Below, one piece after another: positions 34,106 through 61,503 of a DNA stretch of 64,000 bases. Position 1 is the first letter of the stretch; every line of letters begins with the position of its first letter. The translations under genes were made by a program, and so were the position numbers. The stretch lies in the NCBI GenBank assembly GCA_964557135.1, contig CAZKZB010000008.1, positions 14,779 through 78,778 of the forward strand. The letters run 5' to 3'. Origin of the DNA: an uncultured Petrimonas sp. (lineage in GTDB: Bacteria; Bacteroidota; Bacteroidia; Bacteroidales; Dysgonomonadaceae). Under the pieces are notes generated by a model that ran no database searches, was not told the DNA's origin, and was given only the letters and a program-made list of their open reading frames with translations.

Positions 34106-35506
34106 ATGAACACTGACTATAAAACTTTATGGACGAATTGTCTTGACGTGATTCGGGATATAATCCCCGAAGTCGCGTTCAATACGTGGTTTGCACCCAT
34201 TGTCCCCTTAAAATACGAGGACAACGTGCTCACCATTCAGGTTCCCAGTCAGTTTTTTTACGAGTACCTCGAAGATAAATATATCGATCTTATACAACAA
34301 ACACTTTATCGTAAAATCGGGGAAGGCACCATTCTCAATTACCGCATTCTGGTAGAAACGGAAAGCAACACTACCGTTGATATGCGCGGAGAATCCAAAT
34401 TTCCCGTTTCTGAACGGAAAACCTTAAATCCTATTTCCGTAAAAGTACCTACCCCGTTCGATCGGGTTGAAACTTCGGAATTCGATTCGCAGATTAATCC
34501 CAAATACACCTTCAACAACTTTTTCGAAGGAGAGAGCAACCGCTTGGCACGCACGGCAGCCGAAGCTGTGGGGATGAATCCGGCAAAAACGGCTTTTAAC
34601 CCGCTGTTTGTTTACGGCTACTCGGGCGTGGGAAAAACGCACTTGTGCCACGCCATCGGCTCAAAAGTACTGGAGTTGTACCCCGATAAAAAGGTGCTGT
34701 ACATAACGGCTCACCTTTTTAAGGTGCAGTTCACCGATGCACGCCGTTTCAACACAATAAACGATTTCATTAATTTCTACCAGAGCATTGACGTGCTCAT
34801 TATCGATGACATTCAGGAGCTTTCGGGGTTGGAAAAAACACAAAACACTTTCTTCCACATTTTCAATCACCTGCATCAAAACAACAAGCAGTTAGTCATG
34901 ACATCCGATTGCGCACCTACCGATATGCAAGGCTTGGAAGAGCGTCTTCTTACACGTTTCCGCTGGGGGCTTTCCACCAAATTGGAGCGGCCGGACAAGG
35001 AGTTGCGCAAGAAAATTTTGAAGCACAAAGTATTGACCGACGGACTCACTATTTCTGATCAAGTTATCGATTTTATTGCTGAAAACGTTACAGAAAACGT
35101 ACGCGACCTCGAAGGAATTATCGTATCGCTGATGGCGCACTCCATCATCAACAATCGCGAGATTGATATCAGTTTGGCGCGTCGCGTCATGGAACAAAAC
35201 ATCCGTTACGAGAAGAAAAAAATTACGGTACAGAAAATTCAGGAAACGGTGAGCGATTTCTTCAATGTGAAAAGAGAACTGATCCAGTCGGCATCCCGAA
35301 AAAGGGAGATTGTGCAAGCGCGCCAAGTAACCATGTACTTCATTAAAAAACATACCGAATTATCGCTTTCGCAAATCGGAGTTCACGTGGGAAACCGCAA
35401 CCATGCCACTGTTCTGCACGCCTGTAACACGATAAAAGACTTAACCGATGTAGATAAGAGTTTCCGTTCGGATATCGAAGAAATAGAACGGTTACTGCAA
35501 TCGTAA
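34106..35506 (+). CDS. dnaA: Chromosomal replication initiator protein DnaA
   Basis: Walker A GYSGVGKTHL, Walker B LIIDDIQEL and the domain IV signature VGNRNHATVLHA are present. Start set at ATG 34106, because the ORF track starts at an upstream TTG. Confidence 0.95.
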   Translation: MNTDYKTLWTNCLDVIRDIIPEVAFNTWFAPIVPLKYEDNVLTIQVPSQFFYEYLEDKYIDLIQQTLYRKIGEGTILNYRILVETESNTTVDMRGESKFPVSERKTLNPISVKVPTPFDRVETSEFDSQINPKYTFNNFFEGESNRLARTAAEAVGMNPAKTAFNPLFVYGYSGVGKTHLCHAIGSKVLELYPDKKVLYITAHLFKVQFTDARRFNTINDFINFYQSIDVLIIDDIQELSGLEKTQNTFFHIFNHLHQNNKQLVMTSDCAPTDMQGLEERLLTRFRWGLSTKLERPDKELRKKILKHKVLTDGLTISDQVIDFIAENVTENVRDLEGIIVSLMAHSIINNREIDISLARRVMEQNIRYEKKKITVQKIQETVSDFFNVKRELIQSASRKREIVQARQVTMYFIKKHTELSLSQIGVHVGNRNHATVLHACNTIKDLTDVDKSFRSDIEEIERLLQS

Positions 35507-45374: not shown

Positions 45375-45527
45375 TATTTCAATAAAACCTATGCCGATAT
45401 GAAATGAGCTTTCAAAAAGGAATGTGCCCGCTCGAACTTGTTCGCTCGTTTTGACGAGAATTGATCAGGACGCTTTGCAGATAATCACATAACTTAAAAT
45501 TAGCGTGAGTTTAAAATTACATCAAAA

Positions 45528-45574
45528 ACAGTTGAGTTTTAAATGGCTGTCCGTATAAACTATACGCAGTTTGT
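45528..45574 (+). promoter_or_regulatory. Candidate LytTR half-sites upstream of the sensor kinase gene (ACAGTTGAG ... GCAGTTTGT)
   Basis: ACAGTTGAG (45528-45536) matches the LytTR consensus at all 9 positions. The extended words AAAAACAGTT and ACGCAGTTnGT are shared with the 49.7-kb site. Spacing here is 38 nt start to start, which is not the canonical 21-22. Confidence 0.3.
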
Positions 45575-45672
45575 AAAGAGAACACAGCATTTCAACCATT
45601 TAAACCCGCGATTCTTAAACTCAAGTAACAAATTGTACAGATTTTAGTTATCTTTACAAGAAAATAGCCGTA

Positions 45673-48603
45673 ATGCTTGTACGAATGATTAAGTTGATAT
45701 TGCTGTTTTTGTCCTTCTCTCTGTTTTCGTTTGGACAAAACGAGTACAAAGCCGATTTGTTCCAAATCACCGACGGGCTTCCATCGGACGCGGTGTTGAT
45801 GACAACAAAAAAAGACGGATTTTTGTACATCGCCACGCAAAGAGGGCTGTGCATGTACGACGGCTATATCTTTATCCATTCGCCCGAAGTGCAAAATACT
45901 GTTTTCAGCTTTTCTGAAAAAAAAGGCAAACTCTACGGTGAAGAGTTAGGCACGGGGCTATTTGAAACAACTCATATCTACGGTAAAAAACAAGTCGTCG
46001 CCGAGGTAAATTATGCCGATGATATACAAGATAACGACCACTTTAATCATCCATACAAGGACGATTCGGGAAATATCTGGTGATCAGACTTCCATTTCGT
46101 GAAATTTTTCAACCCGGAGAGTAATGCTACACAAGCATTCAGAGTTGCGGAGAATAAAAAGCAGTTAGACATTGTTGTTTCGTATCTCGAAACACCCCAA
46201 GAACTCATGCTGGCAACTTCCGAGGGGCTGTTTACTTGGCAAAAACAGCAGAAAGAATGGCTGAAACAGAGCGATATACGATTCACATCCGCCATCGAAA
46301 AAACAGGAAAATTTCTATTATTGTCGCAGTCAGCAGAACTCTTCGAATACCTGCCTAACAGTAAACAATTGGTTCTATTAAAAACGCTGCCCCTGAAGCG
46401 TTCTTTTTCGCTTGTCAACAATATAGAAAACGGCGATTTCTTGGTTTTTTACGACACCGAAAACCTATATCGTTACACACCGGAGACCAATGAGTTGAGA
46501 CCGATTTTCGTTTCTGAGAGACGAATAAATCACGTGTTTTACGATGCGGTAAACTCTATTTTCTGGATTTCCACACAGAGCGGACTAATCAAGCTTACGC
46601 AAAGCAACTCGGCAATTCGACCCATTATTTTCCCTGACGCATCTCCCGGAGCTGTAACGGATATGGTAGAAGACGAAAAATCACGCATCTGGATGGTAAA
46701 AAACTCCAACACACTTTTCGTGAAAGAGGGTGAGAAAGTAAGTGCCGTTCCCATTCCCGAAAATCAAATTAATCGATTATCGTTTACAGGAAACCAACTG
46801 CTGCTGGCTACTGAATCGGGCGTTTACAGGAAAGATGAAAAAGATGCATTTCGGAAAATAATTCATAGCGATATCCCGATAAAAAAAGCCATTATTTACT
46901 CCGACAAATACTGGCTCTTGCCTGAAGAGGGAGCGATAAAAGTATATGACTCCGAAACGTTGAAAGAAATTACGGAGTACATCAGAAACGACATTCAATA
47001 CTGGGAAATCAACCTGTTCAACGACTTTACAGTATCCGCCGATAATCGGCTTTGGGTGGCAAGCTGGATGCCCAAAGATTTTGGGATATCGGTATTCGAT
47101 GACAGCAAAAGAAAATTCACCGAAATATCCTCCATCCCCGGTAACAATGAGTCTTTTGTTGCCGATTATTTTAATCGGATTGTACCGCTGCGTAACGGCA
47201 ACATGATTTTTTCGGCAACCGGAGGATTCAACATCGTAAATCGGGACGGTAAAATCGTCCACTCCATGTTTTCGCGTGCTAACAACCTTGTTTGCGACAA
47301 TATCGACGGTATTGCCGAAGACCGTAACGGAAACATTTGGTTCGGTTGCGCCGAGGGATTGTATTACTACAACCAAACCACCCACGTACCCATTCGCATT
47401 TCTAAGACAGACGGTCTGGTATCCAACGACATCACTCACGGGTTTCTGCTCTCCCAAGACAACTCATTGTACATCGGCACCGAAGAGTCGGTCGAAATAA
47501 TAAATCCGGCTCAAATACTGAATACAAAACTTATCGATGAACTGAAACTGACCGCCATTAAGATAAACAATGAATACTTGCCTTACGTAACGCACACCAT
47601 CTCGCTGAAAGAGAAGGAGGCAACGCAAATCGAACTGTTTTTCTCGGCACTCAATTTTAACCGAAAAGAGAGACTGATTTATCGATACAAATTCGGCAAC
47701 GAGGATTGGAATTATTTAGGCTCCGAACCCAAACTATCGCTCATTCGTCTCACTCCCGGGAAATATCATATCACCATAGAAGCAGGCGATAATTTAGGAA
47801 ACTGGCAAGAGAAAAACTTAGAATTAAGCCTCGAAATTATTCCGCCATTTCACAAAACAATTTGGTTTTCAATTGCATTGTTTATCTGTTTTTTCATAGG
47901 CGCTCATTTTTTCAACGTTTATTTAGTGAGACAGGAGAAAGAAAAAGGCGAGTTAAAGAAAAAAATAAAGGATAACGAGAACAAGATGCTCCGCTCACAA
48001 ATGAACCCCCATTTCCTGTTCAATTCGCTGAATTCCATCAACAGTTTCATTATCCAAAACAAAGCCGATGAAGCAGAAAAATACCTAACCGCGTTTTCGA
48101 AACTGATGCGCAACATTTTGGATAATTCGCGCAAAGAAACCATCTCGTTAAAACAAGAATTAGAAACCGTAAAGCTTTACTTAGACTTGGAAGCCGTGCG
48201 GTTGGAAAATAAATTCGATTACGGGATTTCCATCACCAACGAAGTGGATGTAGATTATGTGCAAATTCCGCCGCTTATTCTTCAACCGTTTTTAGAAAAT
48301 GCGATCTGGCACGGAATCAATTACAAGCAGGGAGACGGATTTATCAATATCGATGTGGAGTGCGACAACGAAAACAAATCGGTGCTGATTATTAAAATAA
48401 AGGACGATGGTGTAGGGCGAAAAACAGCGTCGAAACGCAGAAGCAAAGAATACGCGCACAAATCTTACGGCATAGACATCACAAAAGAGCGTTTAGAAAT
48501 ACAAGGAGCGTATAATTCGTTAGAAATTACCGATTTATACAATGAATTTCAAGAACCTTCGGGCACATTGGTAACCCTAAAAATTCACATTAAAAATGAT
48601 TAA
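45673..48603 (+). pseudogene. LytS/YehU-type sensor histidine kinase with periplasmic beta-propeller repeats, interrupted by a single in-frame TGA (46081-46083)
   Basis: ORFs 45673-46083 and 46099-48603 share one frame and are separated only by TGA plus 5 sense codons. The N-terminal piece carries the signal/TM and the first propeller repeats. Confidence 0.6.
46099..48603 (+). CDS. Sensor histidine kinase body (propeller/Y_Y_Y-like repeats, TM, His_kinase PF06580-type, HATPase)
   Basis: 834-aa ORF with repeated GNIWFG / SRIWMV propeller motifs and a TM segment WFSIALFICFFIGAHFF. It also has MLRSQMNPHFLFNSLNSI and LQPFLENAIWHGI. Confidence 0.8.
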   Translation: MKFFNPESNATQAFRVAENKKQLDIVVSYLETPQELMLATSEGLFTWQKQQKEWLKQSDIRFTSAIEKTGKFLLLSQSAELFEYLPNSKQLVLLKTLPLKRSFSLVNNIENGDFLVFYDTENLYRYTPETNELRPIFVSERRINHVFYDAVNSIFWISTQSGLIKLTQSNSAIRPIIFPDASPGAVTDMVEDEKSRIWMVKNSNTLFVKEGEKVSAVPIPENQINRLSFTGNQLLLATESGVYRKDEKDAFRKIIHSDIPIKKAIIYSDKYWLLPEEGAIKVYDSETLKEITEYIRNDIQYWEINLFNDFTVSADNRLWVASWMPKDFGISVFDDSKRKFTEISSIPGNNESFVADYFNRIVPLRNGNMIFSATGGFNIVNRDGKIVHSMFSRANNLVCDNIDGIAEDRNGNIWFGCAEGLYYYNQTTHVPIRISKTDGLVSNDITHGFLLSQDNSLYIGTEESVEIINPAQILNTKLIDELKLTAIKINNEYLPYVTHTISLKEKEATQIELFFSALNFNRKERLIYRYKFGNEDWNYLGSEPKLSLIRLTPGKYHITIEAGDNLGNWQEKNLELSLEIIPPFHKTIWFSIALFICFFIGAHFFNVYLVRQEKEKGELKKKIKDNENKMLRSQMNPHFLFNSLNSINSFIIQNKADEAEKYLTAFSKLMRNILDNSRKETISLKQELETVKLYLDLEAVRLENKFDYGISITNEVDVDYVQIPPLILQPFLENAIWHGINYKQGDGFINIDVECDNENKSVLIIKIKDDGVGRKTASKRRSKEYAHKSYGIDITKERLEIQGAYNSLEITDLYNEFQEPSGTLVTLKIHIKND

Positions 48604-49336
48604 AGCAATTATTATAGACGACGAGAAACATTGTTTAGTAACCCTCGAACATCACCTGAAAAAGACCGGCGAAATTGAAGTTTTGGCTGCCATTCAGGAT
48701 AGTACCGTTGCAGTTGATAGGATAAGTGGCCTAAAACCCGACATCGTATTCATCGATATAGAGATGCCCGGAATGAACGGTTTTGAAGTACTTAACCAAT
48801 TCGAAGCACTGACTTTCAAAGTAGTTTTCACCACCGCCTACGACCAATACGCCATCAAGGCGCTAAAAATGAACGCATTGGACTATCTTCTAAAGCCGGT
48901 GGCATTCGAAGATATCGAAGAGGTTATCAACAAATTCAAAAACAGCGCCATGCATCAAAGCAAAGAGCAGATAAGTCACCTCTATCGGTTCTCGGAAGGC
49001 AAAATGCAGGATACCATAGCATTATCGATGCAAGAAGGGTTGATTTTTGTCAGAATTGAAGATATCATGTATATCGAAGGCAGCGGGTCCTATTCTTACA
49101 TCGTCATGACAGATAAGTCGAAACACTTAGCCAGCAAGAATATCTCGCTTTTTGAAGAGGTTCTCGAAGATAATCCAATGTTTTTCAGGGCACATAAGTC
49201 TTTTGTGGTAAATATCCGTCACATCAAGCAATACATTCGTGGCGAAGGCGGTGATATAATCATGAACGACGGAAAAAGAGTTTCGCTGAGCCGGCACAAA
49301 AAACAAGAATTTATGAGATTGTTTAAGAGGATTTGA
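48596..49336 (+). CDS. LytTR-family response regulator
   Basis: 246-aa ORF with receiver motifs IIDDE and VFIDIEMPGMNG. The C-terminal LytTR domain carries FFRAHKSFVVN. It overlaps the kinase stop by 8 nt. Confidence 0.9.
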   Translation: MIKAIIIDDEKHCLVTLEHHLKKTGEIEVLAAIQDSTVAVDRISGLKPDIVFIDIEMPGMNGFEVLNQFEALTFKVVFTTAYDQYAIKALKMNALDYLLKPVAFEDIEEVINKFKNSAMHQSKEQISHLYRFSEGKMQDTIALSMQEGLIFVRIEDIMYIEGSGSYSYIVMTDKSKHLASKNISLFEEVLEDNPMFFRAHKSFVVNIRHIKQYIRGEGGDIIMNDGKRVSLSRHKKQEFMRLFKRI

Positions 49337-49697
49337 ATACATCATTTACCTTACCTTAAATCTACCCTTCAAGATGAAAAAATGCTTTTTTAAATTATTA
49401 AGTTTTATTGTTGTCCGATAGAAATCTTACGTTTTTTTGTGATTTGTCATAAACGTTTCAGGAAATATTCAAAGATGTAAGGGCTGAAATGCCATGGAGT
49501 ACTCGACCCGAAGTGGTCGGATTTTTCAAAGCGCTGCTTTTCAGGTAGATTTATTCGGATGTATTCACTACCGTAAGTTACTCCGTCTGTCGGCGTATTG
49601 CATACGGTTATAAAAATATCGCCTTTCGAGTCAAATCGCTATTTTTTATCGGACAATAATGAAGAAAATACGACATAATTTGTTCGCAAAATTAAAA

Positions 49698-49811
49698 ACA
49701 GTTTCTTAGTCTTTTTCTCTCTTTTTATAAAACCAAACACGCAGTTGGTTGACCCAAATCCACAGTTCACAAAACATATATTGACAAATGATTTTCAATA
49801 CATTATTTTTA
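49698..49811 (+). promoter_or_regulatory. Candidate LytTR operator (ACAGTTTCT, GCAGTTGGT-N12-ACAGTTCAC) and promoter upstream of the collagen-like gene
   Basis: Two 9-mers at 49741-49749 and 49762-49770 are separated by exactly 12 nt. Each matches 8 of 9 positions of [TA][AC][CA]GTTN[AG][TG], and a third half-site lies at 49698-49706. TTGACA-N17-TATTTTTA follows at 49781-49811. Confidence 0.4.
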
Positions 49812-49908
49812 TGTAATTGAAACGACATTACCCTAAAAATACGGGGCGATAATTCAATGATTATTTTTTTTAATCCATAAATCACTCAATAATTTACAAT
49901 CACAGCAA

Positions 49909-51177
49909 ATGAAAGTATTTAATTTTTTATGCACCGTTTTAGCGCTTATGTTTATTTTAAGCCTTACGGGATGTATTGGAGACGAGGGCCCAATGGGTAT
50001 CCAGGGAGAGCAAGGTATTGCAGGATTAGATGGCAACATTTTCTATTCGGGCAACACTGCTCCGGCAGCCAATGTGGGTAAAGACGGCGATATGTATCTC
50101 GATAAAGTTTCAGCCACGCTTTATGGCCCAAAACTATCGGGAAGCTGGGGAACCGGTATTCCTCTTAAAGGAGCCGAAGGCCCCCAAGGAGAACCCGGCG
50201 CTACCGGCCAGCAGGGCGCGCCCGGCGTACAAGGCCCGGCAGGAACACCCGGAAGTAAAATCTTATCGGGTAACGGCTCTCCGGCATCATCACTTGGAGT
50301 TACAGCAGACTATTATTTAGATAAAGTAACCGGACTGCTCTACGGTCCAAAATCTGTTTCGGGTTGGGGGACTCCCATCAACCTGAAAGGCGAACAAGGC
50401 ATTCAGGGCTTGCCCGGAAAGGATGGCTCCATGTTTTATAGCGGCAACGGGGCGCCTTTATTGTCTATGGGTAAAGAAGGGGATATGTATCTTGATAAAA
50501 CTAATGTTATGTTGTACGGCCCGAAAACAACAGAAACTTGGGGAGCAGGTATGTCTTTGAAAGGTAATACAGGAGAAGCCGGTCAAGCGGGAGCGCCCGG
50601 TGCTCCAGGCAGTAAAATCTTATCCGGAACAGGCGCTCCCGCTTTATCAATGGGCACAGTAGGTGATTTCTATTTAGACACTTCCACCGCACTGTTTTAC
50701 GGACCAAAAACAAGTACAAGTTGGGAAACTCCGGTAAACCTGAAAGGACCAAAAGGTGATAAAGGAGATAAAGGCGACCCGGGCGCTGCAAGCGTGATTT
50801 ACAGCGATTGGATGGTCGTGGAAGGATATCCTTCTTTCTATTATATCAAAGTTCCTGAATTTATTAACAATCCAAAATTGATTGACAATGCTTCTATTGT
50901 CTTGTATGCGAAAGAATTTAAATTAGATGGAAGAACAGAACTCGGAATATTCCAGTTGAATTTCACCAGCCCGACATGGGGTAGTGTTATCCAGTATTAC
51001 ATTATGGCTAATGATTTTGACATCGTAATTAATGCAAATCCGGATACAAAACTCGGATTACAAAAATCACATCTTTTCCGGTATGTTATTATCCCCGGCG
51101 GAGTGCAGGCAACCCGCAGCATGGTAGATTTAAACAATTACAACGCTGTAAAAGAAGCTTTTGGACTAAAGGACTGA
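49909..51177 (+). CDS. Collagen-like (G-X-Y) repeat lipoprotein with four interleaved globular modules
   Basis: 422-aa ORF with lipobox LSLTGC and five G-X-Y runs (for example GAEGPQGEPGATGQQGAPGVQGPAGTPG). These alternate with four copies of a ~40-aa GD-YLD...LYGPK...W(G)...LKG module. Confidence 0.75.
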   Translation: MKVFNFLCTVLALMFILSLTGCIGDEGPMGIQGEQGIAGLDGNIFYSGNTAPAANVGKDGDMYLDKVSATLYGPKLSGSWGTGIPLKGAEGPQGEPGATGQQGAPGVQGPAGTPGSKILSGNGSPASSLGVTADYYLDKVTGLLYGPKSVSGWGTPINLKGEQGIQGLPGKDGSMFYSGNGAPLLSMGKEGDMYLDKTNVMLYGPKTTETWGAGMSLKGNTGEAGQAGAPGAPGSKILSGTGAPALSMGTVGDFYLDTSTALFYGPKTSTSWETPVNLKGPKGDKGDKGDPGAASVIYSDWMVVEGYPSFYYIKVPEFINNPKLIDNASIVLYAKEFKLDGRTELGIFQLNFTSPTWGSVIQYYIMANDFDIVINANPDTKLGLQKSHLFRYVIIPGGVQATRSMVDLNNYNAVKEAFGLKD

Positions 51178-51283
51178 CACTTCTACTACGAGTTTATTGT
51201 CAAAAGTAATCAACTATTTACATACGGAGATTTTGGTTACATGTATTGAAATAAGCCGATAACCGCCTATAAAACGATATAAG

Positions 51284-52987
51284 ATGAACCGAATAAGTTT
51301 TATTTTCACTCTACTTTTGATGTGTCTTGCGCCACTACAGGCGCAAGACTTGACAAATATCGGGCAACAAAAACCGATACGATTTTCGGGAAGTACAGAA
51401 TTGCGCGGCATTTTCTACAACGCATCCGGTATTGCCAATCGCCGCGCTCCGTTCACTTGGTTGTTATCGGGTAATCCTACATTAAGTGTGTATGGATGGG
51501 ACATTCCATTTAGCTTTATCCTCAGCCGCGATGACCGCTCTTTTCGTCAACCGTTCAATCAGTTCGGAATGAGTCCTACATACAAATGGCTTACGCTCCA
51601 TGGCGGATATCGAAATTTGAGTTTTTCGCCCTACACTTTGGGTGGGCACACGATGCTGGGTGGAGGAGTGGAAGCGAATCCCGGAAAATGGAGATTAGGG
51701 TTTATGTATGGCCGGCTCAATCGAGCAACAGTTATAGATACCTCCCGAATGGCACTTGCTCCTTTTTCTTTCAGCAGAAAAGGATGGGCCGCAAAAGTGG
51801 GATACGGAACGGAAAGGGCTTTTTTCGAGTTAAGTATGCTCCGGGCGAAAGACAATCCGAACTCAAAACCCGATAATGCACACATGCTGCCGCAGGAATA
51901 TCAGTCGCTACCGGCAGCCAACACTGTTATTGGGTACGCAGCAAGAATAATGTTTTGGAAAAAAATAATTTTCGAGACGGATGGAGCCGCCAGCATTTAC
52001 ACTTACGATATTCATTCGCCGTTAGATATTTCCAGTTCCGTTAACACCGAATGGCGAAAATGGATGAAAATGTTTGATGTTAATGGAACTTCAGAGTGGG
52101 CGAAGGCATTTAACGCATCGATTGGTTATCGGGAAAGAAACTACGGGATAAAAATTACTTATCGTCGTGTTGATCCGGGTTTTATGTCAATGGGAGCATA
52201 TTATATCGCCAACGATTTAGAAAACTGGACGATAAACCCTAATTTTATTTTTTTTAACAACAAGCTTCGCTTCAATGGAAGTTTAGGAATACAGCGCGAC
52301 AACTTGCGTGATCAGAAACAAGCGAGCAATAGACGCGTAATAGGTTCCGCCATTTTAGGAGCGGATATCTCAGAACGATTGGGAGTAGATGTGAATTTCA
52401 GCAACTTCTCCAATTCCATGCAACCTAAAGCTCTGGTTTTTGCCGATTCGCTCAAAATCGTGCAGAACACTACTACGCTTAATATAATGCCGCGATATAC
52501 GATTATTGGAGAAGAAACTTCACAAATGATTTTTCTGATGGCCAATCTTAATCAGATGAGAGATTTTGGCGGATATTACAGCGCGGAAGCTTCAAACCGT
52601 GATATTTCAACTTATCAGTTTTCGCTCAATTACAACATCAATTTCCCGAAACCCAACCTTAGCTTATTCTCGTCAATAAGCTATGTGAATATGTCATCGG
52701 CAAGCATCAAAAGCAGTTATAATGGTATCTCGTTGGGAGGGAACTACGGTTTAATGAAAAATCGGCTGCAAACTGGAGCTAATCTTAGTCTTATGCAAAA
52801 TAAAGTCAAAACCGGCACCTCGATAATTTTTAACGGTTCATTAAACGCGGTTTATGAATTAAGTAGTAAGCATAACCTGCGTGCTTTGTTATTCTTGACA
52901 AACAACCGAACCAACACGCACAGTACAGGTGGATATCCCAATTTCAGGGAAACAAGGGCAGAAATGGTGTATCAGTTTAGATGGTGA
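51284..52987 (+). CDS. Putative outer-membrane beta-barrel protein
   Basis: 567-aa ORF with signal peptide MNRISFIFTLLLMCLAPLQAQ. It shows amphipathic strand periodicity throughout and a C-terminal MVYQFRW aromatic terminus. Confidence 0.55.
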   Translation: MNRISFIFTLLLMCLAPLQAQDLTNIGQQKPIRFSGSTELRGIFYNASGIANRRAPFTWLLSGNPTLSVYGWDIPFSFILSRDDRSFRQPFNQFGMSPTYKWLTLHGGYRNLSFSPYTLGGHTMLGGGVEANPGKWRLGFMYGRLNRATVIDTSRMALAPFSFSRKGWAAKVGYGTERAFFELSMLRAKDNPNSKPDNAHMLPQEYQSLPAANTVIGYAARIMFWKKIIFETDGAASIYTYDIHSPLDISSSVNTEWRKWMKMFDVNGTSEWAKAFNASIGYRERNYGIKITYRRVDPGFMSMGAYYIANDLENWTINPNFIFFNNKLRFNGSLGIQRDNLRDQKQASNRRVIGSAILGADISERLGVDVNFSNFSNSMQPKALVFADSLKIVQNTTTLNIMPRYTIIGEETSQMIFLMANLNQMRDFGGYYSAEASNRDISTYQFSLNYNINFPKPNLSLFSSISYVNMSSASIKSSYNGISLGGNYGLMKNRLQTGANLSLMQNKVKTGTSIIFNGSLNAVYELSSKHNLRALLFLTNNRTNTHSTGGYPNFRETRAEMVYQFRW

Positions 52988-53120
52988 AACAGATAGGTGC
53001 AATTGGCTCATAAATTAAACAGGTCTTAACACATTATATTTTCGAAATAGAAGTCGTCAATATCTAATTTTTCGACTTAAAACAGTTTTTACTCTTGATT
53101 ATTAGTTAAAAAATACGACA

Positions 53121-56100
53121 ATGAAAACTATCAATTGGCTGTTGCTCACATTATTATTCACTGTAATATGGAACGAGGCTTACTCGCAAATAAATATAAA
53201 TATCCAAGTAAAGCCGCCTTATCAAAGCCGAATCGCAGAATACGCTTCTCGCCCCGATTTAATACTACTAACGTTGACAAATACTTCGCGAGAGACACAG
53301 CGTGTTCAGCTAACAGGCAGCATTGTGGGCAACAACGACATCAGCCTTACGGTAAGGCCATCCTACAAAAGCCCGTCTCCCATAGAAATAGCGCCGGGCC
53401 AAGTGATAGCGCTTAACTCTACTGACATTTCATTTTTATTCAATTATTCATCAATAAACGTGAAAGGAATAGACTTGAATAATGTCGTGTATGATGCACG
53501 CCTTCGCGAAGGCATATACCAAATCTGCATACGGGCATTGGATTATGATACAAGACAACCCATCAGCCCTGATGAACCAATGGGCTGTACCATGTTTTAT
53601 ATTAACGATTTAGAACCACCGATTATTACCGCTCCTTTGACCGAAACGGTACTTCAAAATACGGGCATGTCGCCGATATTTCCTATCACCTGGCTCTCTT
53701 CGCCGGGATCTGTTCCTTCTACACAATACAAGGTAAAAATAGTGGAAATTATTGCTAACCGTGATCCAAATGACGCTATGCAATCGGCTACTACACCTCC
53801 ATTTTTCGAAAGAACAATTATGGGAGGCAATTCATTGCTCTACGGGCCGACCGAACCTCAACTCACACCCGGCAGAAAATATGCTTTAATGGTACAGGCA
53901 ATTGATCCTTCGGGGCAATCCATTTTTCGCAACGAAGGCAAGAGTGAAGTACATGTGTTTGAATATGGAAACGTAAACTCCGGAATAGGGAGCATAGCCG
54001 ACGGAAGTGGCGGAGAAAATAATAAGCTAATTACGAAAGAAAATGCAACCAATACCATTTCAGGAAAAGTAATATGGGCCTATAAGGCTACTGAAGAAAG
54101 CTTTAAATCAGCACCTACAACTAAAATTGTTTACGAACCGAAAGACGAATCTTCAAAATCTTCCGGAGATGGACTTGTCGGATATTATCTAAGCCACAAT
54201 GATTTGCAAATGAAAAATTACACCGCATTGATTATGGCAGACCCCACGTTGCAACAATCTAGCGATGCAAACACATCCACTAATTCAGCTTCTATTTATT
54301 CTCCGGGAACTACTTCGACGGATTATTTCTACCACTCTACAAACTCACGTGAAGGAACAACAAAATTTCCTTTAAGCAACACAACCGTTAATTTGCTTAT
54401 CAGAAGGAAACTAAATAGAAATACACCTAAACCAAACGAATCTAACAAAAACAATTATAACACCATCTTCGGGGAACGTAATAAAAGTTCTCTAACCTCA
54501 ATGTTGAGTAGCAAGACGCAAACCTCAAATATCAGCATGAGCTCCCTCAATGAACCCACATCGCCAAATCCGCAAAACGCTCCTGTACAAGAATACCAGA
54601 ACGATTTGCTGGCAACAGCCACTACAAATCAATCGGGAGTGTTTACCCTCGAATTGATTAATCCTAAATTTGAGGGAGTGATGGACAACGCTGAGCTTGT
54701 GATCTCAATAAAAAAAGAAGGCTTTGATGCTTTCGAGAAAGCACTACCTGCTAATGAGCTTGACAGGCTGGAAAACATAGATATCGGCGAACTTCTTGTG
54801 TTAGCGAACACTTACCGATTCAATCCAAAAATTGAATTGGAAAGACCACAAAACACCGAAATTACAAATCCGGGAATGCGTATAAAAGTTTACCGTGAAG
54901 CCACTGATGAGAATAAATATCCTTTTCTGAAAGAGGAGGGAAACCGTTTTCAAGGGACAACCACAACAAAGGTTATCAACGGGAAATTGTACAACGAAAT
55001 TGCAACGGATAGTGTAGCTAAGGACAGCTATTCCGTAGAAGCTTATTCGTTCAACTTTGGGCGGATATTCCGTTTTGGAAAAATTTACATCGAGGCAGAA
55101 GATTTATCACAAAACTACAAAAAACTAACAACAAACTTGCAGGTTGTTGAATTTAAGTCGAACACAGATAATCGGGATTTGCTTACTGTTAAACCATCCT
55201 ATTTGATGAAAGTGGAAAATCCGTCGGTGATTGGAGAAGTATTACTCAGTGCCGGAGAAAATAAAGTACCGGTAGCAGGGGCTATGGTGCGGGTTTCTTT
55301 CAACAAAGAAGATGTTACGCTATCGTCTTCACAAAAAGCTGATAACATCCAAGCAAGCACATCGCCTCCCGGCTCATTATTCAGTACCGAAAAGATTGCA
55401 ATTACTTCCGTTACATCAACTTCCGGAACCGTGAAACTGGCTTCAAGTTCAGATGTGAGCTTTTCAAGTATATCTGCCGCTGTTAGCAACACGGGGCTTT
55501 CAGTTCCTGCGGAGATTACAAGCGCATCAGGTTCTGCATTGACCTACAATGTAGTTAATTCAGGAGCATTAAGTAGTAATTTCGCGGGATTGTATTTAAA
55601 ATATACGGCTTTTACGGATAGCGCAGGGAATTTCCTCATTGGCGATTTACCGGTGTTAAAACCCGGAGGAAGGTACACCATCGAACTAATAAACGTTCCC
55701 TCCAACTACCAAGGTATGGCTGTACTGCCCGATTCAAAACAAACCTTTGCTGTGAATGCTGGTAGCCAAACCGCGGTTCAATTCAATATTTCGCCCGAAT
55801 TGGTAAACATCGTCGGACGTGTGGTTACAGAAAAAGAAACACCTGTGGGCTTTGCAAGATTGCATTTTAAAGGTAGTACTCACTATTTCGAAAGTGGTGA
55901 GACCGGAATTTTCCAAACTTCATTTTATGTGGGTGAACACACATTGATTGTTGAAAAAGAAGGTTATATGCCTTTTGAAAAAATAATCAGAGTAACAGGG
56001 AAAGAGGAGACAGATGACCGAATAACCGCCACGAATAACATAAGACTTACACCAGTCTTAATAAAGCCGGGAGAAGCAGTGATGAGCATATCAACACCGG

Positions 56101-59100
56101 ATACATGGATGAAAAGCACACAACAAACTCCAACCGTTCAAAGTGCCATCAATAGCGGACAAAAGTTTTCACCGACTTTATTCGGACATACTTCAAGCGG
56201 AAACGCCAGGTTTGCAAGTCATGATGAAAACACAGCGCCATTTGAGGATTATTTAGCAAATAATGGCCCGTCAGCATCTTTCTCAGTTCGCCAAGCAAAT
56301 GATATTTTTCAATATACAAGTTCTATTTCCGAATTCAGTTCTATCATAGGCGCTACTTTCCGACTGAACGAAAACTCGTACGTTCAAACCAACACGCAGG
56401 ACTTGGGTGATATCGGGCCTATGTTACCTCGTATTGGAAAAGTAAAATTTACTATTTTGGAACAAGGGACATCCACACCTGTTGAAGGAGCAAGCATAGC
56501 GCTATTTGACACCCTTAATGTAACCGACCGCAACGGACAATGGCTTTACGAAGGATTTGGCGGACAGGTTGTTGTTACCGTAAAACCGCCCGCAGGCAAA
56601 AGATTAGTAGCGGTTCAAAAAAGTATTAATATTAACGATAACGGCTTGGTAGAAGAAGTGAATATCTCACTTCAAACCGGAGTAAGAGTATTTGGCTCTG
56701 TTACCGGTAAAAACCAACCTATTCCCGAAGCACAAATATCGGTTGAGGGATTTGAATATTTATCCGTAAGTGCAGACCAATCGGGAGTTTACGAAATGTA
56801 TATACCCCCCGGCGCTCAGGTATTGAAAGCTTCAAAAACGGGATTTTTCTCCAAAAGAGAAGAACGAACACTTTCCACGACTGCCGATATCGAATGGAAC
56901 TTTTCATTGGAAGACGGAGGTGGAAGAAATATTTCCACACTATTGGGCTTCGAAATTGAACTCGACAAATCCGAAAAAGATGGACAAACAGAAAAATGGT
57001 CGGGCAGGTTTGTAAACCTAAAACCGGTATCCACTTTTTTTACAACAGACACAAAGGGTATTGCTTTCAATAACATAAAAGTAACGTTCGATGCAAACGG
57101 CAACGCAATTCCTGAAAACAACAAAGTAATTACCGATGTGACACAAATTCCACTGAAAGTGTTCGGGTTTCTTCCTATAATCTTAAAAAATGATTCAAAA
57201 ATCGTTGTGGAGGCAATGCCGGATGGCAAAGGAAGCATAAAAGGTAAAATGCAGTTAGACGTAAGTAGGGTTTTGAGTTCAAGTATTAAATTACCGGTTG
57301 AAATTCCTATCTTTACCAAGATAAAAAACACTATAGCATCAGGCGAAGCATCTACTTCAAGTCCCGATCAACTTGACATAGAGCTTTTCCGTGCTGGAGC
57401 GACCAATGAATTACCCGATCTGACCTTGCAATTGGTCACCGAAAACAACAAAAAAGTCTCTCTGGATTTGTATGGTTTTACTGTAAATCTTGATTTGACA
57501 AAATCATCTGTAGCCACTACCGGAATTGTACTTTCGGGGAATGTCAAGACTCCGGCATTAGGCCCTATTTCTTCAGCCGATATAGTAATTGAAGAACTTA
57601 GTCTCTCCGATAAATTCTCGCTAAAATCAGTCAAAATTAGCGAAACCGGATTGCCTGAAATTAAAATAGCAAACTGGTCAGCTAAACTTTCATCCGTATT
57701 GTTCAATGAAAATGGATTTAAACTCGGTGGTGAATTAAAATTCAGCATCCCGAGTTCGGGAGATTCGCAGTTGGATTTTGCCGATCTCTCATTAGCGAAA
57801 GATGCTATTTTTGGCGGAAAATTCAGTTTCCCGGGTGCAGGACTTAATCTTGTGAAGGTTGCCAATTTAAAATCAGCCGGCAAACCCCTTAGCTTCGGAC
57901 GCGTAGGGTCAACACAAGTTTACTATCTCTCGGGAAGCGCGAAATTAAAGTTCGAGAAACTAATTTCAGACGAAATTACAATTCCTTCGTTCCAGGTACA
58001 GACCGACGCACGTTTTATGTTGGAAGCTCCTGTAAACTTGAAAGTTTCCGTAGGATTTGCGTCTATAGAAATTCAAAGTATCACAGTTAGCACACTGCAA
58101 GGCTCCACACCTTTTATCGGTGTAAAAGGAAAATTCGGTGTCGCTCTTCCGATGCTGAAAATAGAGACAGGTGACATCAAATACACCGCCGGTGCTAACG
58201 GACAAGTAAACGTATCGGTCGGCACTCTAACCGGAGTACTCGATATCCCGGTCATGAAAGTGGGTGTTACCATCGGTTTGAAAGAAAACGGATTCGAAGG
58301 CGGTGGAAAACTCGGTATTCCGGGAACACCAATAAATGCTGATATTAAATTTCATTATTTCAAACTACCAAACGGTATTGATGTAGGAGCCGAATTCAGT
58401 TCGGGCGTCATAATCCCATTAGGCGTAGTACAAATTTCAAGAGTTGGCGGTGGTTTCAGGTACAACAGCGACAACAGAACCTTCATGATTAACATTAATG
58501 GTGCGGCAAGCATTACCGGACTGCAGGCGGTTGTTAAACTAGACCCGATAAGCCTAACAGTAGAAACAGGTCCGGTTGTTAAAGGCAAATTAGGTGTCGT
58601 AGTGGGTGAAGTACTTGCATTGGCTGATGCGGAAGTTGTCTTAGATTTCCCTGCAAAACAATTTAACATTAAGATTAATATGGAACTCGAACCACTACCA
58701 AAAGTGGCTAAGGCCAGAGTTCAGGGATTGTTGGGTATTAGTTGGAAGCCGGAAGATACGTATGTTTTCCTTGGAACAAGCATTGAAGTAGATGTGTTGG
58801 GAATTCTTAAAAGTCGCGGTGTATTTGCCATCGGTATCAATGTAAGAGATCCGAAATCCAGAGGGGATGCTATCCCGCAATATTTCAGCTCGGTAGATGA
58901 TGCTCTGCTTGCAGAAGGGGCCGGAACTGTCTTTTCAGGAGTATATCTCCACGGTAAAACCACTGTAGGTATCCGGGAAAAAGATGCGCCTCGCTTTAGT
59001 TTTGGTTTAGTATCGGGCAGAGCATGGTTTTATACTGAAACAGAAGTGATGCTGTTTCTTAACTTCGCTCAAAATCAATATGCTATGCTAATTGGGGGAA

Positions 59101-59405
59101 TGGTTGAAGTTGGAGCCGAAGGGTGTTTTACTGCAATTTGTGTGGGAGCTCAATTTGCTTCATGTTTTAGAATTGCAGGCTCATTAAATAGTTCCGGATG
59201 GGAGCTTAGTGGCAATGTAGCGGGATATCTCGCCGCGAATGTCGGCAACTGTATGCCTAAATGCAACGATTTCTGTATCGGAGTTTTTAAACTCGGAGGG
59301 AGGCTTTGCATAGGCGCTCATGCTTCACTACGCATCAGCTCATCAAGAGGAATAGACGCTGGTTTCGGATTAGGGGCAGATAATAACGGGAACAAGTGTA
59401 TGTAG
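53121..59405 (+). CDS. Giant (2094-aa) secreted protein of unknown family with several CarboxypepD_reg-like domains and a Cys-rich C-terminus
   Basis: One uninterrupted ORF with signal peptide MKTINWLLLTLLFTVIWNEAYSQ. At least five prealbumin-like modules start near nt 54058, 55226, 55807, 56444 and 56681. About 860 C-terminal residues are unassigned and beta-rich, and there are 8 Cys in the last ~95 residues. Confidence 0.7.
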   Translation: MKTINWLLLTLLFTVIWNEAYSQININIQVKPPYQSRIAEYASRPDLILLTLTNTSRETQRVQLTGSIVGNNDISLTVRPSYKSPSPIEIAPGQVIALNSTDISFLFNYSSINVKGIDLNNVVYDARLREGIYQICIRALDYDTRQPISPDEPMGCTMFYINDLEPPIITAPLTETVLQNTGMSPIFPITWLSSPGSVPSTQYKVKIVEIIANRDPNDAMQSATTPPFFERTIMGGNSLLYGPTEPQLTPGRKYALMVQAIDPSGQSIFRNEGKSEVHVFEYGNVNSGIGSIADGSGGENNKLITKENATNTISGKVIWAYKATEESFKSAPTTKIVYEPKDESSKSSGDGLVGYYLSHNDLQMKNYTALIMADPTLQQSSDANTSTNSASIYSPGTTSTDYFYHSTNSREGTTKFPLSNTTVNLLIRRKLNRNTPKPNESNKNNYNTIFGERNKSSLTSMLSSKTQTSNISMSSLNEPTSPNPQNAPVQEYQNDLLATATTNQSGVFTLELINPKFEGVMDNAELVISIKKEGFDAFEKALPANELDRLENIDIGELLVLANTYRFNPKIELERPQNTEITNPGMRIKVYREATDENKYPFLKEEGNRFQGTTTTKVINGKLYNEIATDSVAKDSYSVEAYSFNFGRIFRFGKIYIEAEDLSQNYKKLTTNLQVVEFKSNTDNRDLLTVKPSYLMKVENPSVIGEVLLSAGENKVPVAGAMVRVSFNKEDVTLSSSQKADNIQASTSPPGSLFSTEKIAITSVTSTSGTVKLASSSDVSFSSISAAVSNTGLSVPAEITSASGSALTYNVVNSGALSSNFAGLYLKYTAFTDSAGNFLIGDLPVLKPGGRYTIELINVPSNYQGMAVLPDSKQTFAVNAGSQTAVQFNISPELVNIVGRVVTEKETPVGFARLHFKGSTHYFESGETGIFQTSFYVGEHTLIVEKEGYMPFEKIIRVTGKEETDDRITATNNIRLTPVLIKPGEAVMSISTPDTWMKSTQQTPTVQSAINSGQKFSPTLFGHTSSGNARFASHDENTAPFEDYLANNGPSASFSVRQANDIFQYTSSISEFSSIIGATFRLNENSYVQTNTQDLGDIGPMLPRIGKVKFTILEQGTSTPVEGASIALFDTLNVTDRNGQWLYEGFGGQVVVTVKPPAGKRLVAVQKSININDNGLVEEVNISLQTGVRVFGSVTGKNQPIPEAQISVEGFEYLSVSADQSGVYEMYIPPGAQVLKASKTGFFSKREERTLSTTADIEWNFSLEDGGGRNISTLLGFEIELDKSEKDGQTEKWSGRFVNLKPVSTFFTTDTKGIAFNNIKVTFDANGNAIPENNKVITDVTQIPLKVFGFLPIILKNDSKIVVEAMPDGKGSIKGKMQLDVSRVLSSSIKLPVEIPIFTKIKNTIASGEASTSSPDQLDIELFRAGATNELPDLTLQLVTENNKKVSLDLYGFTVNLDLTKSSVATTGIVLSGNVKTPALGPISSADIVIEELSLSDKFSLKSVKISETGLPEIKIANWSAKLSSVLFNENGFKLGGELKFSIPSSGDSQLDFADLSLAKDAIFGGKFSFPGAGLNLVKVANLKSAGKPLSFGRVGSTQVYYLSGSAKLKFEKLISDEITIPSFQVQTDARFMLEAPVNLKVSVGFASIEIQSITVSTLQGSTPFIGVKGKFGVALPMLKIETGDIKYTAGANGQVNVSVGTLTGVLDIPVMKVGVTIGLKENGFEGGGKLGIPGTPINADIKFHYFKLPNGIDVGAEFSSGVIIPLGVVQISRVGGGFRYNSDNRTFMININGAASITGLQAVVKLDPISLTVETGPVVKGKLGVVVGEVLALADAEVVLDFPAKQFNIKINMELEPLPKVAKARVQGLLGISWKPEDTYVFLGTSIEVDVLGILKSRGVFAIGINVRDPKSRGDAIPQYFSSVDDALLAEGAGTVFSGVYLHGKTTVGIREKDAPRFSFGLVSGRAWFYTETEVMLFLNFAQNQYAMLIGGMVEVGAEGCFTAICVGAQFASCFRIAGSLNSSGWELSGNVAGYLAANVGNCMPKCNDFCIGVFKLGGRLCIGAHASLRISSSRGIDAGFGLGADNNGNKCM

Positions 59406-59493
59406 CTTTACACTATTTAGTTAGAACAAGTAATTAACGTTATAAAAAATATGATTCGAAAGTTGAATTGAAAAAAAATAATATGATATTGCA

Positions 59494-61503
59494 ATGAAAC
59501 TAAAATTAAAACTCAGACTTATAATCGCACTATACTTCTTGATTTTCTTCGCGACAAAATCTAATGCTCAGCGTCTTGACAACTTACTTGTTTTGCCGGG
59601 GCCAAAGCACACCATAGTATGGTTGCAAAGTGAGAACATAGAGAAGCCCGATGCGGGAGTAATATGGCAGGTCAATCGTGCCGACGGCGGAGACGGTAAC
59701 TTCAAAGAAGTAGGAAAAATCTCTTTTCCAGCTTCAAGCAGCCAGTTGAAATCAAATTTAGGCCCTAAACATTCGGCATCGGTATTGGAACAACTTCGCG
59801 CAGACAACATGGAGAGCGCTTACAAAATACTAAAGGAACACGGCGTGGATACGCTTGGACTTCTTTTCATAGAAACGCAAATTATGCAAGCCGTGGGATT
59901 GGCATTTATCGATGAAAATCGCAATCCGCTTGTGCAGTCTGTTTATCGCTTAGATTTAATTAAGGACGGCAAAGTGCAACAGTCATTGACACAAAAGGTG
60001 GATGGAAAACTGCCAGTTTATACCGAACGCTTCCGAGCCGAAAAATATCACGCGTCTGACAGTATTGTCGCCGCAAGCTGGCTTGGAATGTACCCAAAAT
60101 CAGAAATTGGAGTTTTCTTTGTTAACATTATAAAGAAACAAAACAAGGAAAAGGATTATCACCTGGTGGACAGGAAACTTTTGTCAATGACTGGCGAAAC
60201 AAACGAAAGTCATGTCTCATTCTACGAAGATGCTCACACAGGTAGTTTTCTTTCTTATTATATCCAATTAGAAGACTTAGCGGGAAATCTGGGAGAGCCG
60301 TCAGACACCATTCATTTACTGGCAGTAGATGACAAAAAGCTACCGGTGATAAAAAACTTTTTGGCAACTGACACGTTAGGTGGACTATTACTTACTTGGG
60401 AACCATTACCTAAAAATGCACTGTTCACAGGTATTCAGATACTAAAATCGCGTCAGTCTGAAACAGATTTTATTGTAGTTGATACCATCGCCTCCGATTT
60501 AAGTTTCTATTTGGATGACAAAGTAATGGCCGCATCCACGTATTATTACAAAATACGGCCGTTGCTGTTTCAATTGCCGTCTGGCAATCCCTACCCGTTC
60601 GCAGATGCTGTAGGATTTAAAGAGTTGCGGATGGGATCCCAAAACCCAAACACACCAATCGGGGTTTCTGCACGAACTACTCCTTCCGGAATTGAGGTTA
60701 GCTGGCAAAGGAGTTCCGAACCCGATATTTTCGGTTATATGTTATTGCGTGGCACTTCGTCAAAAAACTTGGAGGTAATTGAACCATCTGTAAAAGATTA
60801 TGTGTATGTTGACACTACTTTCTATAAAGGATACTCGGGGCAATACCATTATGCGGTTCAGGCAATCGGTATGAATCAATTGTTAAGCGACACATCCGAA
60901 ATAGCCTCGGTGGGAGTGGTTCAAGCTATTGTGCTTTCACCGCCGGGAGGCATCTCAGGAAGACGCGTAGCCGAAGGCGTAAGCCTGCAATGGGAAGATG
61001 TGAGGCAAAAAGATGACAAAGTGAACGGATTTATGTTGTACCGGCGCAAATCGGGGACAAAGGAGTATCGTAACTTAACTTCTGAAGCACTGCTCCGTCC
61101 CTATTACATTGACACAACGGCTGTTCAGTCTGAGGCTTACGATTACGCCGTAGCTGCCAGCGATGCGTGGGGCAATCAGAGCGTTTTGTCACCAAATGCC
61201 ACCATAAATACCGATGACTCTGCAGTTCTCCAACCACCGCTACAACTTAATATTCGAAGCCTTCAAGCGGGTATTGATTTATCGTGGCCTCAAGATTATT
61301 TAAATGTGGAAGGAAAATCGTTTGTTGTCTATCGACGTGAAGTTGGGAAAAGTGATTTTGTCAAATTAGAGGAAATTAATAACGGGAAGTACTCATTCCT
61401 TGATAACAATGTCTCTACTGACATCCTGTATGAATACGCAGTAAGCGTAAAATATAAAAATTCTGAAGGCCTAAAAAGCACTCCTGTTTCTGTTCGAAGA
61501 TAA
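59494..61503 (+). CDS. Secreted protein with multiple fibronectin-type-III-like modules
   Basis: 669-aa ORF with a signal peptide ending KSNAQ. It has repeated W...GY.L.R......Y.D....Y.Y.V.A.D..GN.S modules (YYYKIRP, YHYAVQAIG, YDYAVAASDAWGNQS, YEYAVSVKY). Confidence 0.6.
   Translation: MKLKLKLRLIIALYFLIFFATKSNAQRLDNLLVLPGPKHTIVWLQSENIEKPDAGVIWQVNRADGGDGNFKEVGKISFPASSSQLKSNLGPKHSASVLEQLRADNMESAYKILKEHGVDTLGLLFIETQIMQAVGLAFIDENRNPLVQSVYRLDLIKDGKVQQSLTQKVDGKLPVYTERFRAEKYHASDSIVAASWLGMYPKSEIGVFFVNIIKKQNKEKDYHLVDRKLLSMTGETNESHVSFYEDAHTGSFLSYYIQLEDLAGNLGEPSDTIHLLAVDDKKLPVIKNFLATDTLGGLLLTWEPLPKNALFTGIQILKSRQSETDFIVVDTIASDLSFYLDDKVMAASTYYYKIRPLLFQLPSGNPYPFADAVGFKELRMGSQNPNTPIGVSARTTPSGIEVSWQRSSEPDIFGYMLLRGTSSKNLEVIEPSVKDYVYVDTTFYKGYSGQYHYAVQAIGMNQLLSDTSEIASVGVVQAIVLSPPGGISGRRVAEGVSLQWEDVRQKDDKVNGFMLYRRKSGTKEYRNLTSEALLRPYYIDTTAVQSEAYDYAVAASDAWGNQSVLSPNATINTDDSAVLQPPLQLNIRSLQAGIDLSWPQDYLNVEGKSFVVYRREVGKSDFVKLEEINNGKYSFLDNNVSTDILYEYAVSVKYKNSEGLKSTPVSVRR

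Follow-up and report, generated by a model that had tools for sequence, protein, structure and literature searches.

An outer-membrane barrel gene accompanies TANFOR-class giant proteins and a secreted FN3 partner in a two-module locus of Bacteroidota

Jana, Salomon and Bosis (2020) defined the TANFOR proteins as "polymorphic toxins in Bacteroidetes" with FN3 domains enriched nearby, left their export route open with type IX secretion (the T9SS) offered as speculation, and never mentioned a barrel or an upstream outer-membrane protein in the text (PMC7073777). Here we describe a TANFOR locus in a 64,000-nucleotide stretch of DNA from an uncultured Petrimonas sp. (assembly GCA_964557135.1, contig CAZKZB010000008.1, positions 14,779 to 78,778 of the forward strand), referred to below as the window, in which a giant protein of 2094 amino acids (aa) is encoded between a 567-aa outer-membrane β-barrel protein and a 669-aa secreted protein with FN3 domains (Table 1). 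Two other kinds of described system are close in design. As in TpsB/TpsA and CdiB/CdiA (type Vb), the barrel gene lies directly before the gene of a giant exoprotein, the exoprotein's conserved N-terminal domain goes with the barrel, and the variable C-terminal part is swapped together with the next gene at a sharp junction. SprB/SprF of Flavobacterium johnsoniae is a T9SS type-B cargo with its cognate PorP/SprF-like barrel, and the window locus resembles it in that a giant Bacteroidota surface protein is encoded beside its own dedicated outer-membrane barrel. In the literature that we searched, PMC7073777 was the only substantive paper on the TANFOR domain and no follow-up work was found; the family of the giant is known, whilst the barrel partnership and the two-module design were not found there.

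Synteny was analysed in one genome per species by a scan with the barrel profile, and the best 80 of 201 relatives were taken. The barrel gene is followed by a same-strand TANFOR giant in 74 of these 80 loci, mostly with gaps of -4 to +13 nucleotides (nt), and the FN3-partner gene comes next in 66 loci by a strict test, or in at least 70 when diverged partners (class C, below) are counted. An earlier annotation of the window made from its letters alone (the original prediction) had proposed a regulated unit for building or exporting a large surface structure, and had named conserved gene order as one check; the order of barrel, giant and FN3 partner is indeed kept, with the full triad in at least 70 of the 80 loci and its genes mostly overlapping or near-abutting. 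Contig ends and three Arcicella loci are the true exceptions. All 80 loci belong to Bacteroidota (Sphingobacteriales, Cytophagales, Chitinophagales, Saprospiraceae and a Flavobacteriaceae genome), and the most divergent TANFOR homologues, a 1371-aa protein (locus L091) and a Saprospiraceae protein (locus L092), also follow the barrel directly. Orthologous triads are already listed, undiscussed, in Supplemental Data 1 of PMC7073777, with a domain-less upstream protein of ~565-572 aa and an FN3 downstream protein of ~660-668 aa, including relatives of the window giant's own class (class A, below) from Mucilaginibacter gossypii (WP_091176271, 2149 aa), Pedobacter and Dyadobacter.

The 2094-aa product had been assigned to an unknown family, which is wrong: its homologues and Supplemental Data 1 of PMC7073777 place it in the TANFOR class. 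Among 5.8 billion proteins searched, 72 homologues came up, every one of them from Bacteroidota, and several bear the name "TANFOR domain-containing protein" in their source records. The first ~283 residues are common to all 72 and are the sole aligned stretch in ~40 of them (about 27-74% identity), whilst ~35 also share the C-terminal ~1000 residues, to the last residue. Over the first ~283 aa the giant is 41-59% identical to four TANFOR-named proteins (P0041, P0042, P0051 and P0056). TIGR02542 is its sole NCBIfam match (aa 23-146 against profile positions 3-132 of 145, E 9e-5), at a score of 22 bits against the curated 67 bits and also short of the E < 1e-7 criterion of PMC7073777. It is equally the sole NCBIfam match in 10 of 10 giants tested, always at aa ~25-150, the nine other triad giants scoring 23-52 bits, again below the curated cut-off. 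The giant shares with the published class its Sec signal peptide (MKTINWLLLTLLFTVIWNEAYSQ), a TANFOR domain followed by an FN3-like domain, a size of ~2000 aa, restriction to Bacteroidota, a variable C-terminal part and FN3 genes enriched nearby (PMC7073777). It differs in that the triad subfamily has no recognisable toxin domain or immunity gene, and its two-module structure and three cassette classes are described only in the present analysis.

Beyond the TANFOR module the giant carries the signal peptide and the two prealbumin-like domains that had been read from its sequence, the latter as CarboxypepD_reg matches in Pfam. Its only cysteines are two in the TANFOR domain (Cys136 and Cys156) and eight in the last 93 residues. 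Neither the giant nor a profile of the TANFOR module matched any PDB sequence, and an internal duplication within the N-terminal module was considered and rejected, as aa 22-163 and aa 164-300 have no detectable similarity. A structural model of aa 1091-2094 (gC, 1004 aa) is entirely beta with a pLDDT of 77. It has two domains of transthyretin-like fold, other beta modules and a long antiparallel meander; the CarboxypepD_reg regions give local fold matches to transthyretin-like domains (TMt about 0.8). The matches of gC to LptD, teneurin, ApoB and outer-membrane barrels reflect, on this model, generic beta-meanders. Rhs/YD-shell and TamB-like readings of gC were dropped, there being no global fold match and no Pfam support. 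AsmA or TamB (DUF490) has no Pfam match in the giant and does not occur among the top 50 fold matches, and the N-terminus of the giant is a cleavable signal peptide, whereas TamB/AsmA proteins have an inner-membrane anchor there. Such proteins also have a continuous beta-taco fold.

The 567-aa protein encoded upstream of the giant was confirmed as a signal-peptide protein with an outer-membrane-barrel-like terminus (...YQFRW). An AlphaFold2 model, made from a 29-sequence alignment with a mean column identity of 58%, is all-beta with ~24 long antiparallel strands, no plug and no periplasmic domain (pLDDT 73). A Foldseek search of the PDB gave, with probability 1.0, outer-membrane barrels of large size only: MtrB, TonB-dependent transporters and the FimD usher. 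Among these and related proteins, MtrB around MtrA, the FimD usher and LptD around LptE are the best fold matches; they are sheath, usher or plug-type barrels of 22-26 strands, and their lumen holds or passes a protein partner; the window barrel differs from them in that the TM-scores are only 0.3-0.44 and there is no sequence similarity, and in that the unit has no usher plug or N- or C-terminal domains, no cytochromes and no LptE-like gene. By sequence the 567-aa protein matched nothing in Pfam, NCBIfam or the PDB, its profile likewise found no PDB sequence, and 29 family members searched against Pfam at E <= 1 gave only noise and no family; the label "DUF5723" that UniRef attaches to some homologues was not reproduced by Pfam. 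The family is nevertheless large and uniform: an exhaustive profile search of 1.84 billion representatives clustered at 50% identity found 2,584 members at E <= 1e-3, of which 1,416 reach E <= 1e-30, and the best 150 members listed are nearly all stand-alone proteins of ~540-600 aa, plus a few shorter fragments. It is a large family without any annotation.

The 669-aa product of the gene after the giant was likewise correctly read as a signal-peptide protein built of FN3-like modules. Its aa ~290-669 form four tandem FN3 domains, as indicated by a 22-homologue profile whose matches in this region are titin and other FN3 arrays (E down to 1e-31); its matches to PDB sequences are generic FN3 matches only, and its N-terminal ~260 aa have no assigned domain.

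Pairwise similarity matrices over 63 complete triads revealed that the locus consists of two modules. The barrel follows the first 290 residues of the giant (Spearman rho 0.75), and the FN3 partner follows the rest of the giant (rho 0.87) and its last 700 residues (rho 0.82), whilst pairs across the two modules are near zero (rho 0.04-0.15); the correlation of FN3 partner and body holds within narrow bands of barrel similarity. Three classes of FN3 partner exactly nest ten clusters of giant bodies: class A with 31 loci (including the window), class B with 23 and class C with 9. The tips of the class A and B giants are cysteine-rich, those of class C are not. The junction is visible in bacterium A37T11, whose two loci are nearly identical in barrel (normalised score 0.88) and TANFOR module (0.82) and differ in the class of body and partner. 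Their DNA aligns in a single 2.5-kb block of 79% identity that runs from the barrel start to giant codon ~290, and the two giants are ~87% identical in protein sequence as far as aa 270, with identity at background level by aa 300. Similarly, homologue P0030 is 74% identical to the window giant over aa 1-282 and unrelated beyond. From these correlations, the A37T11 breakpoint and the P0030 pattern, the sequences divide the locus into a constant unit, the barrel plus the TANFOR/FN3-like N-terminus, and an exchangeable unit, the body plus the FN3 partner.

This arrangement fits the proposal of the original prediction that the barrel is an export channel or anchor of a large surface protein, and the reading we favour, at about even confidence, is that a barrel of non-Omp85 type is the basis of a two-partner-like system for export or anchoring. 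All proteins of the unit would cross the inner membrane by Sec and the barrel would be inserted in the outer membrane, where it may engage the TANFOR module and either pass the giant across or anchor it there. The FN3 partner would bind the variable body (the remaining ~1800 residues) as a chaperone or a co-displayed subunit, the collagen-like lipoprotein encoded upstream would be a lineage-specific accessory on the constant side, and the adjacent LytTR two-component system would probably control expression, its kinase being broken in the window strain. At the surface the giant might serve in adhesion or contact-dependent antagonism. The parts differ from those of TpsB/TpsA and CdiB/CdiA: the window barrel has ~24 strands, no POTRA domain and no Omp85/ShlB match in Pfam (TpsB is 16-stranded), the giant begins with a TANFOR domain and has no TPS (haemagglutination activity) domain match in Pfam or NCBIfam, the variable part is ~1800 aa as against ~250 aa, and the partner encoded downstream, where a small immunity protein would be expected, is a secreted FN3 protein of 669 aa. 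If the reading is true, the locus would represent an independent reinvention of the CdiB/CdiA logic. The claim that no system of this composition can be named stands for the barrel and the FN3 partner, which match none that is characterised, and fails for the giant with its published TANFOR class.

Several points weigh against this reading. The physical contact between barrel and TANFOR module is one that we infer, and the correlation of the two, calculated without a housekeeping-gene control, could arise from physical linkage and shared vertical descent alone. The TM-scores of the barrel fold matches are low, closure of the barrel is deduced from the strand count and these matches, and the most conserved part of the barrel (aa 84-163, window 51533-51772; family sequence SFRQPFNQFG.SPTYKW...GHT.LGG...PGK.R.G..YGRLNRA) is also the worst modelled, with a pLDDT of 26-54; on the model this segment may be a plug of the lumen or a partner-binding element. 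The gC model found no global fold match, with a TM-score of at most 0.15. The genes of the window cluster are separated by gaps (51178-51283, 52988-53120 and 59406-59493; 106, 133 and 88 nt) that far exceed those of most homologous loci. Of the 80 loci, 37 have a LytTR regulator or PF06580 kinase gene within 10 kb, with varying sensor types and gene positions; this is a raw count and no measure of enrichment over the genomic background. Finally, T9SS core genes are found in all triad-bearing genomes checked, which leaves room for a T9SS role.

A bolder form of the two-partner reading is that the ~24-stranded non-Omp85 barrel recognises the TANFOR module and exports the giants independently of the T9SS, as an unrecognised Bacteroidota route on whose constant module exchangeable cassettes are mounted; we hold this as tentative and rather doubtful. 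With either form, the conserved upstream barrel is a specific candidate for the missing TANFOR export step and suggests how the giants reach the cell surface. The system is real, widespread and almost unstudied, and the open question of TANFOR export is now directly testable. Should the barrel export or anchor the giants, it would add a new type of outer-membrane secretion partner to a phylum whose large surface proteins are assumed to be handled by the T9SS.

The best-surviving alternative keeps to the hypothesis of Jana et al. (2020), with the giant as a T9SS-exported antibacterial or anti-eukaryotic toxin and the barrel as an adaptor or anchor like PorP/SprF rather than a translocon. T9SS cargo is enriched near TANFOR genes, >95% of TANFOR genomes have a T9SS, and many TANFOR proteins of other lineages bear nuclease or other toxin tips with immunity genes (PMC7073777); the exchange of variable body and partner as a cassette is also what polymorphic toxin systems do. 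The components of the triads speak against it. No type A (TIGR04183) or type B (TIGR04131) sorting domain was found in any of the four cluster products at E <= 0.1, including the giant, the FN3 partner and the lipoprotein, in agreement with the original prediction for the giant; the barrel and its 28 homologues match neither PorP/SprF nor any other Pfam family, and Olivibacter sitiensis, bacterium A37T11 and Sphingobacterium sp. 30C10-4-7 have one or no recognisable T9SS cargo. The likeness to SprB/SprF is limited in the same way, as a C-terminal sorting domain is absent from the window giant, the barrel is of greater size and without a PorP_SprF match, and it is an N-terminal element, not a C-terminal one, that goes with the barrel. 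Pfam and NCBIfam searches of the window giant give no toxin domain, in ten further triad giants no Pfam family matches the C-terminal 900 aa, and no small immunity-like gene lies downstream, where the gene of the 669-aa secreted FN3 protein is followed by a carbonic anhydrase gene on the opposite strand. There are only three cassette classes, conserved to the last residue across genera, unlike the hypervariability of an arms race. We consider the T9SS-toxin explanation unlikely. The toxin label is unsupported for the triad subfamily, because it comprises three ancient cassette classes conserved to the C-terminal residue and has no toxin or immunity signature, and this suggests that the widespread TANFOR giants with an "unknown C-terminus" may not be toxins.

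One variant locus touches on this question: in L091 (8277-24116) the 1371-aa TANFOR protein is followed by a 283-aa lipoprotein-like and a 198-aa cytoplasmic-looking protein and no FN3 partner, which could be a toxin/immunity-style variant; just downstream comes another set of large genes, with products of 548, 319, 1529 and 696 aa.

The original prediction itself took all four products of the window cluster, the collagen-like lipoprotein included, for one surface fibre or matrix of no described family, switched by a LytS/LytTR pair. The four same-strand reading frames were found at exactly the coordinates it gave (Table 1), and its three gap lengths were reproduced to the nucleotide. The shared strand fits a single unit, as does a consensus scan that found no terminator-like site inside the gaps. 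The first product is, as described, a collagen-like lipoprotein, with 422 aa, a lipobox (LSLTGC) and a Pfam Collagen match (E 4e-10); it resembles trimeric fibre proteins and matches PHROG tail-fibre families. Its sequence repeats one kind of unit four times, a short G-X-Y run and then a GDxYLD...LYGPK...WG module, with a C-terminal globular domain after them. The G-X-Y runs are only ~5-9 triplets long and are broken by the non-collagen modules, and the number of units varies, from four in the window to six in the 574-aa homologue of the relative L088 (4676-6400). The PHROG matches are limited to the collagen repeats and no other phage genes are present, and a prophage reading was rejected on these grounds. 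In 16 of the 80 loci, all from Sphingobacteriaceae-like lineages, a homologue that shares the conserved N-terminus C-TKEG-x-VGP immediately precedes the barrel gene, at 4-31 nt. A promoter-like block is conserved upstream of the collagen-like gene. The remaining 64 loci have no collagen-like gene in this position, which is held by unrelated lipoproteins, regulator genes or nothing, and on this sequence comparison the collagen-like lipoprotein is a lineage-specific accessory and not a core member of the unit. As a separate observation, the same position in Parapedobacter sp. 2B3 (L003, 845-8124) is occupied by ~nine tandem same-strand genes of ~170-200 aa, immediately before the barrel gene; most are without a Pfam match, and three genes of different size interrupt the series.

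The regulator pair fares similarly. Pfam confirms both domain sets of the propeller-type LytS-family kinase (His_kinase E 8e-25, Reg_prop 6e-9, Y_Y_Y 1e-7) and of the LytTR regulator (Response_reg 5e-20, LytTR 2e-16), the latter being also BtsR-like in NCBIfam (E 8e-42, below the curated cut-off). The window pair is like LytS/LytTR systems in its PF06580 His_kinase and HATPase_c domains and its receiver and LytTR domains, a pairing that recurs beside other triads, and unlike them in that the sensor is a periplasmic propeller/Y_Y_Y module instead of the 5TM-Lyt membrane domain of LytS, and in that the kinase gene has a premature TGA. The predicted kinase unit was given as beginning at 45528; the open reading frame actually starts at 45673 and is interrupted by this in-frame TGA at 46081-46083, with 46099-48603 continuing in the same frame as the N-terminal fragment. 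The fragment aligns across the TGA with intact homologues of ~1000 aa, the orthologue in L088 is intact (973 aa, 69% identity) with a Cys at the TGA codon, and the same stop codon is present in an independent read-set assembly (L001). Because of an in-frame TGA where the intact L088 orthologue has Cys, the presumed regulator kinase of the cluster is probably non-functional in the window's lineage. The two-component link to the triads is thus frequent (the 37 loci counted above, with a different small response regulator near a further 9 of the 80) and not universal, and in the window its kinase has a nonsense codon; the sensor types beside the triads (propeller, TPR and 7TMR-DISM) vary between loci, which argues for a functional link. 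With the collagen-like gene absent from 64 loci, the giant in a described class, the window kinase disrupted and the two-component link not universal, a single LytS/LytTR-switched fibre or matrix is distinctly improbable, and that model overstates the roles of the collagen-like gene and of the regulator pair.

LytTR-like direct repeats had been read upstream of both the kinase gene and the cluster; these are two different, unrelated short motifs, and a LytTR-box motif common to the two upstream regions was looked for and not found. Before the kinase gene, TGAGTTTWAAAT occurs twice, 27 nt apart; its 28 matches in the window are no more than shuffles give (29 expected), and it is absent upstream of the four-gene cluster. 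Before the cluster, an ACC(C)AAA direct repeat lies at 49732 and 49752, 21 nt apart. The intergenic region here (49337-49908) is unusually long at 572 nt and has no Rfam family match, and because a terminator-like hairpin (49503-49520, consensus scan only) follows the regulator gene, the sequence suggests that the four-gene cluster has its own promoter. The promoter-like block at 49730-49812, with TTGACA at 49781 and then TATTTTTA at ~49804, is kept in L088 although the surrounding intergenic region has diverged. The Bacteroidota -7 promoter element is TAnnTTTG, and the L088 counterpart of TATTTTTA is TATTTTTG, which therefore fits this element; the regulatory meaning of the block is suggestive only. 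The same region also holds a 21-nt inverted repeat pair (49404-49424 and 49643-49663).

Least convincing, and very improbable, is an uptake or surface-capture system with the barrel as a solute or polymer channel, the giant, FN3 protein and lipoprotein as binders and the propeller sensor as regulator, as in the glycan-sensing systems of Bacteroidota. In its favour, TonB-dependent transporters do occur among the barrel fold matches, CarboxypepD_reg domains also stand at the N-terminus of SusC-type transporters and Reg_prop/Y_Y_Y sensors are typical of polysaccharide-sensing hybrid kinases. Against it, a plug domain and a TonB box are both absent from the barrel, Pfam gives it no TonB_dep_Rec or Plug match, the conserved unit has no SusD-like or glycoside hydrolase gene, and a transporter would not be expected to pair so strictly with the first 285 residues of a giant protein.

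Table 1. Coordinates of the features of the locus in the window
Feature	Position	Strand	Remarks
Direct repeat TGAGTTTAAAAT / TGAGTTTTAAAT	45506..45544	+	27 nt start to start, before kinase gene
Sensor kinase N-terminal fragment	45673..46083	+	signal peptide and propeller start; ends at TGA 46081-46083
Sensor histidine kinase remainder	46099..48603	+	Reg_prop propeller, Y_Y_Y, transmembrane segment, PF06580 His_kinase, HATPase_c
Response regulator	48596..49336	+	receiver and LytTR DNA-binding domains (Pfam)
Terminator-like hairpin	49503..49520	+	after regulator gene; consensus scan only
Promoter-like block	49730..49812	+	conserved in relative L088
Collagen-like lipoprotein, 422 aa	49909..51177	+	lineage-specific accessory
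Outer-membrane beta-barrel protein, 567 aa	51284..52987	+	~24 strands (model); proposed dedicated TANFOR-module partner
TANFOR-class giant secreted protein, 2094 aa	53121..59405	+	
Giant constant N-terminal module	53184..53975	+	TANFOR aa ~22-160 and FN3-like aa ~164-285
Two CarboxypepD_reg (prealbumin-like) domains of giant	55809..56915	+	aa 897-967 and aa 1192-1265
Giant class-A C-terminal region gC, aa 1091-2094	56391..59402	+	entirely beta (model)
Giant tip with eight cysteines, aa 2002-2093	59124-59402	+	gC ends in a long antiparallel beta-meander and this tip
Secreted FN3 partner, 669 aa	59494..61503	+	four FN3 domains at nt 60361-61500

Rfam and tRNA scans of the window gave no match, and neither did the PADLOC defence models. 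A dnaA gene lies at 34049-35506, ~15 kb upstream of the cluster, and the window may therefore be near the chromosomal replication origin; its GC-skew profile has no clear switch.

Other TANFOR loci are laid out differently. In Cellulophaga, Aquimarina and Tenacibaculum a ~450-aa PKD-repeat lipoprotein is encoded directly upstream of the TANFOR gene and a ~750-800-aa protein downstream, so that the Flavobacteriaceae layout in Supplemental Data 1 differs from the triad of barrel, giant and FN3 partner (PMC7073777). The three Arcicella spp. loci (L040, L041 and L050) have a barrel homologue without an adjacent giant, each preceded closely by a response-regulator gene; L050 does have a TANFOR giant, ~3.7 kb from the barrel and on the opposite strand. 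These loci are rearranged or degenerate.

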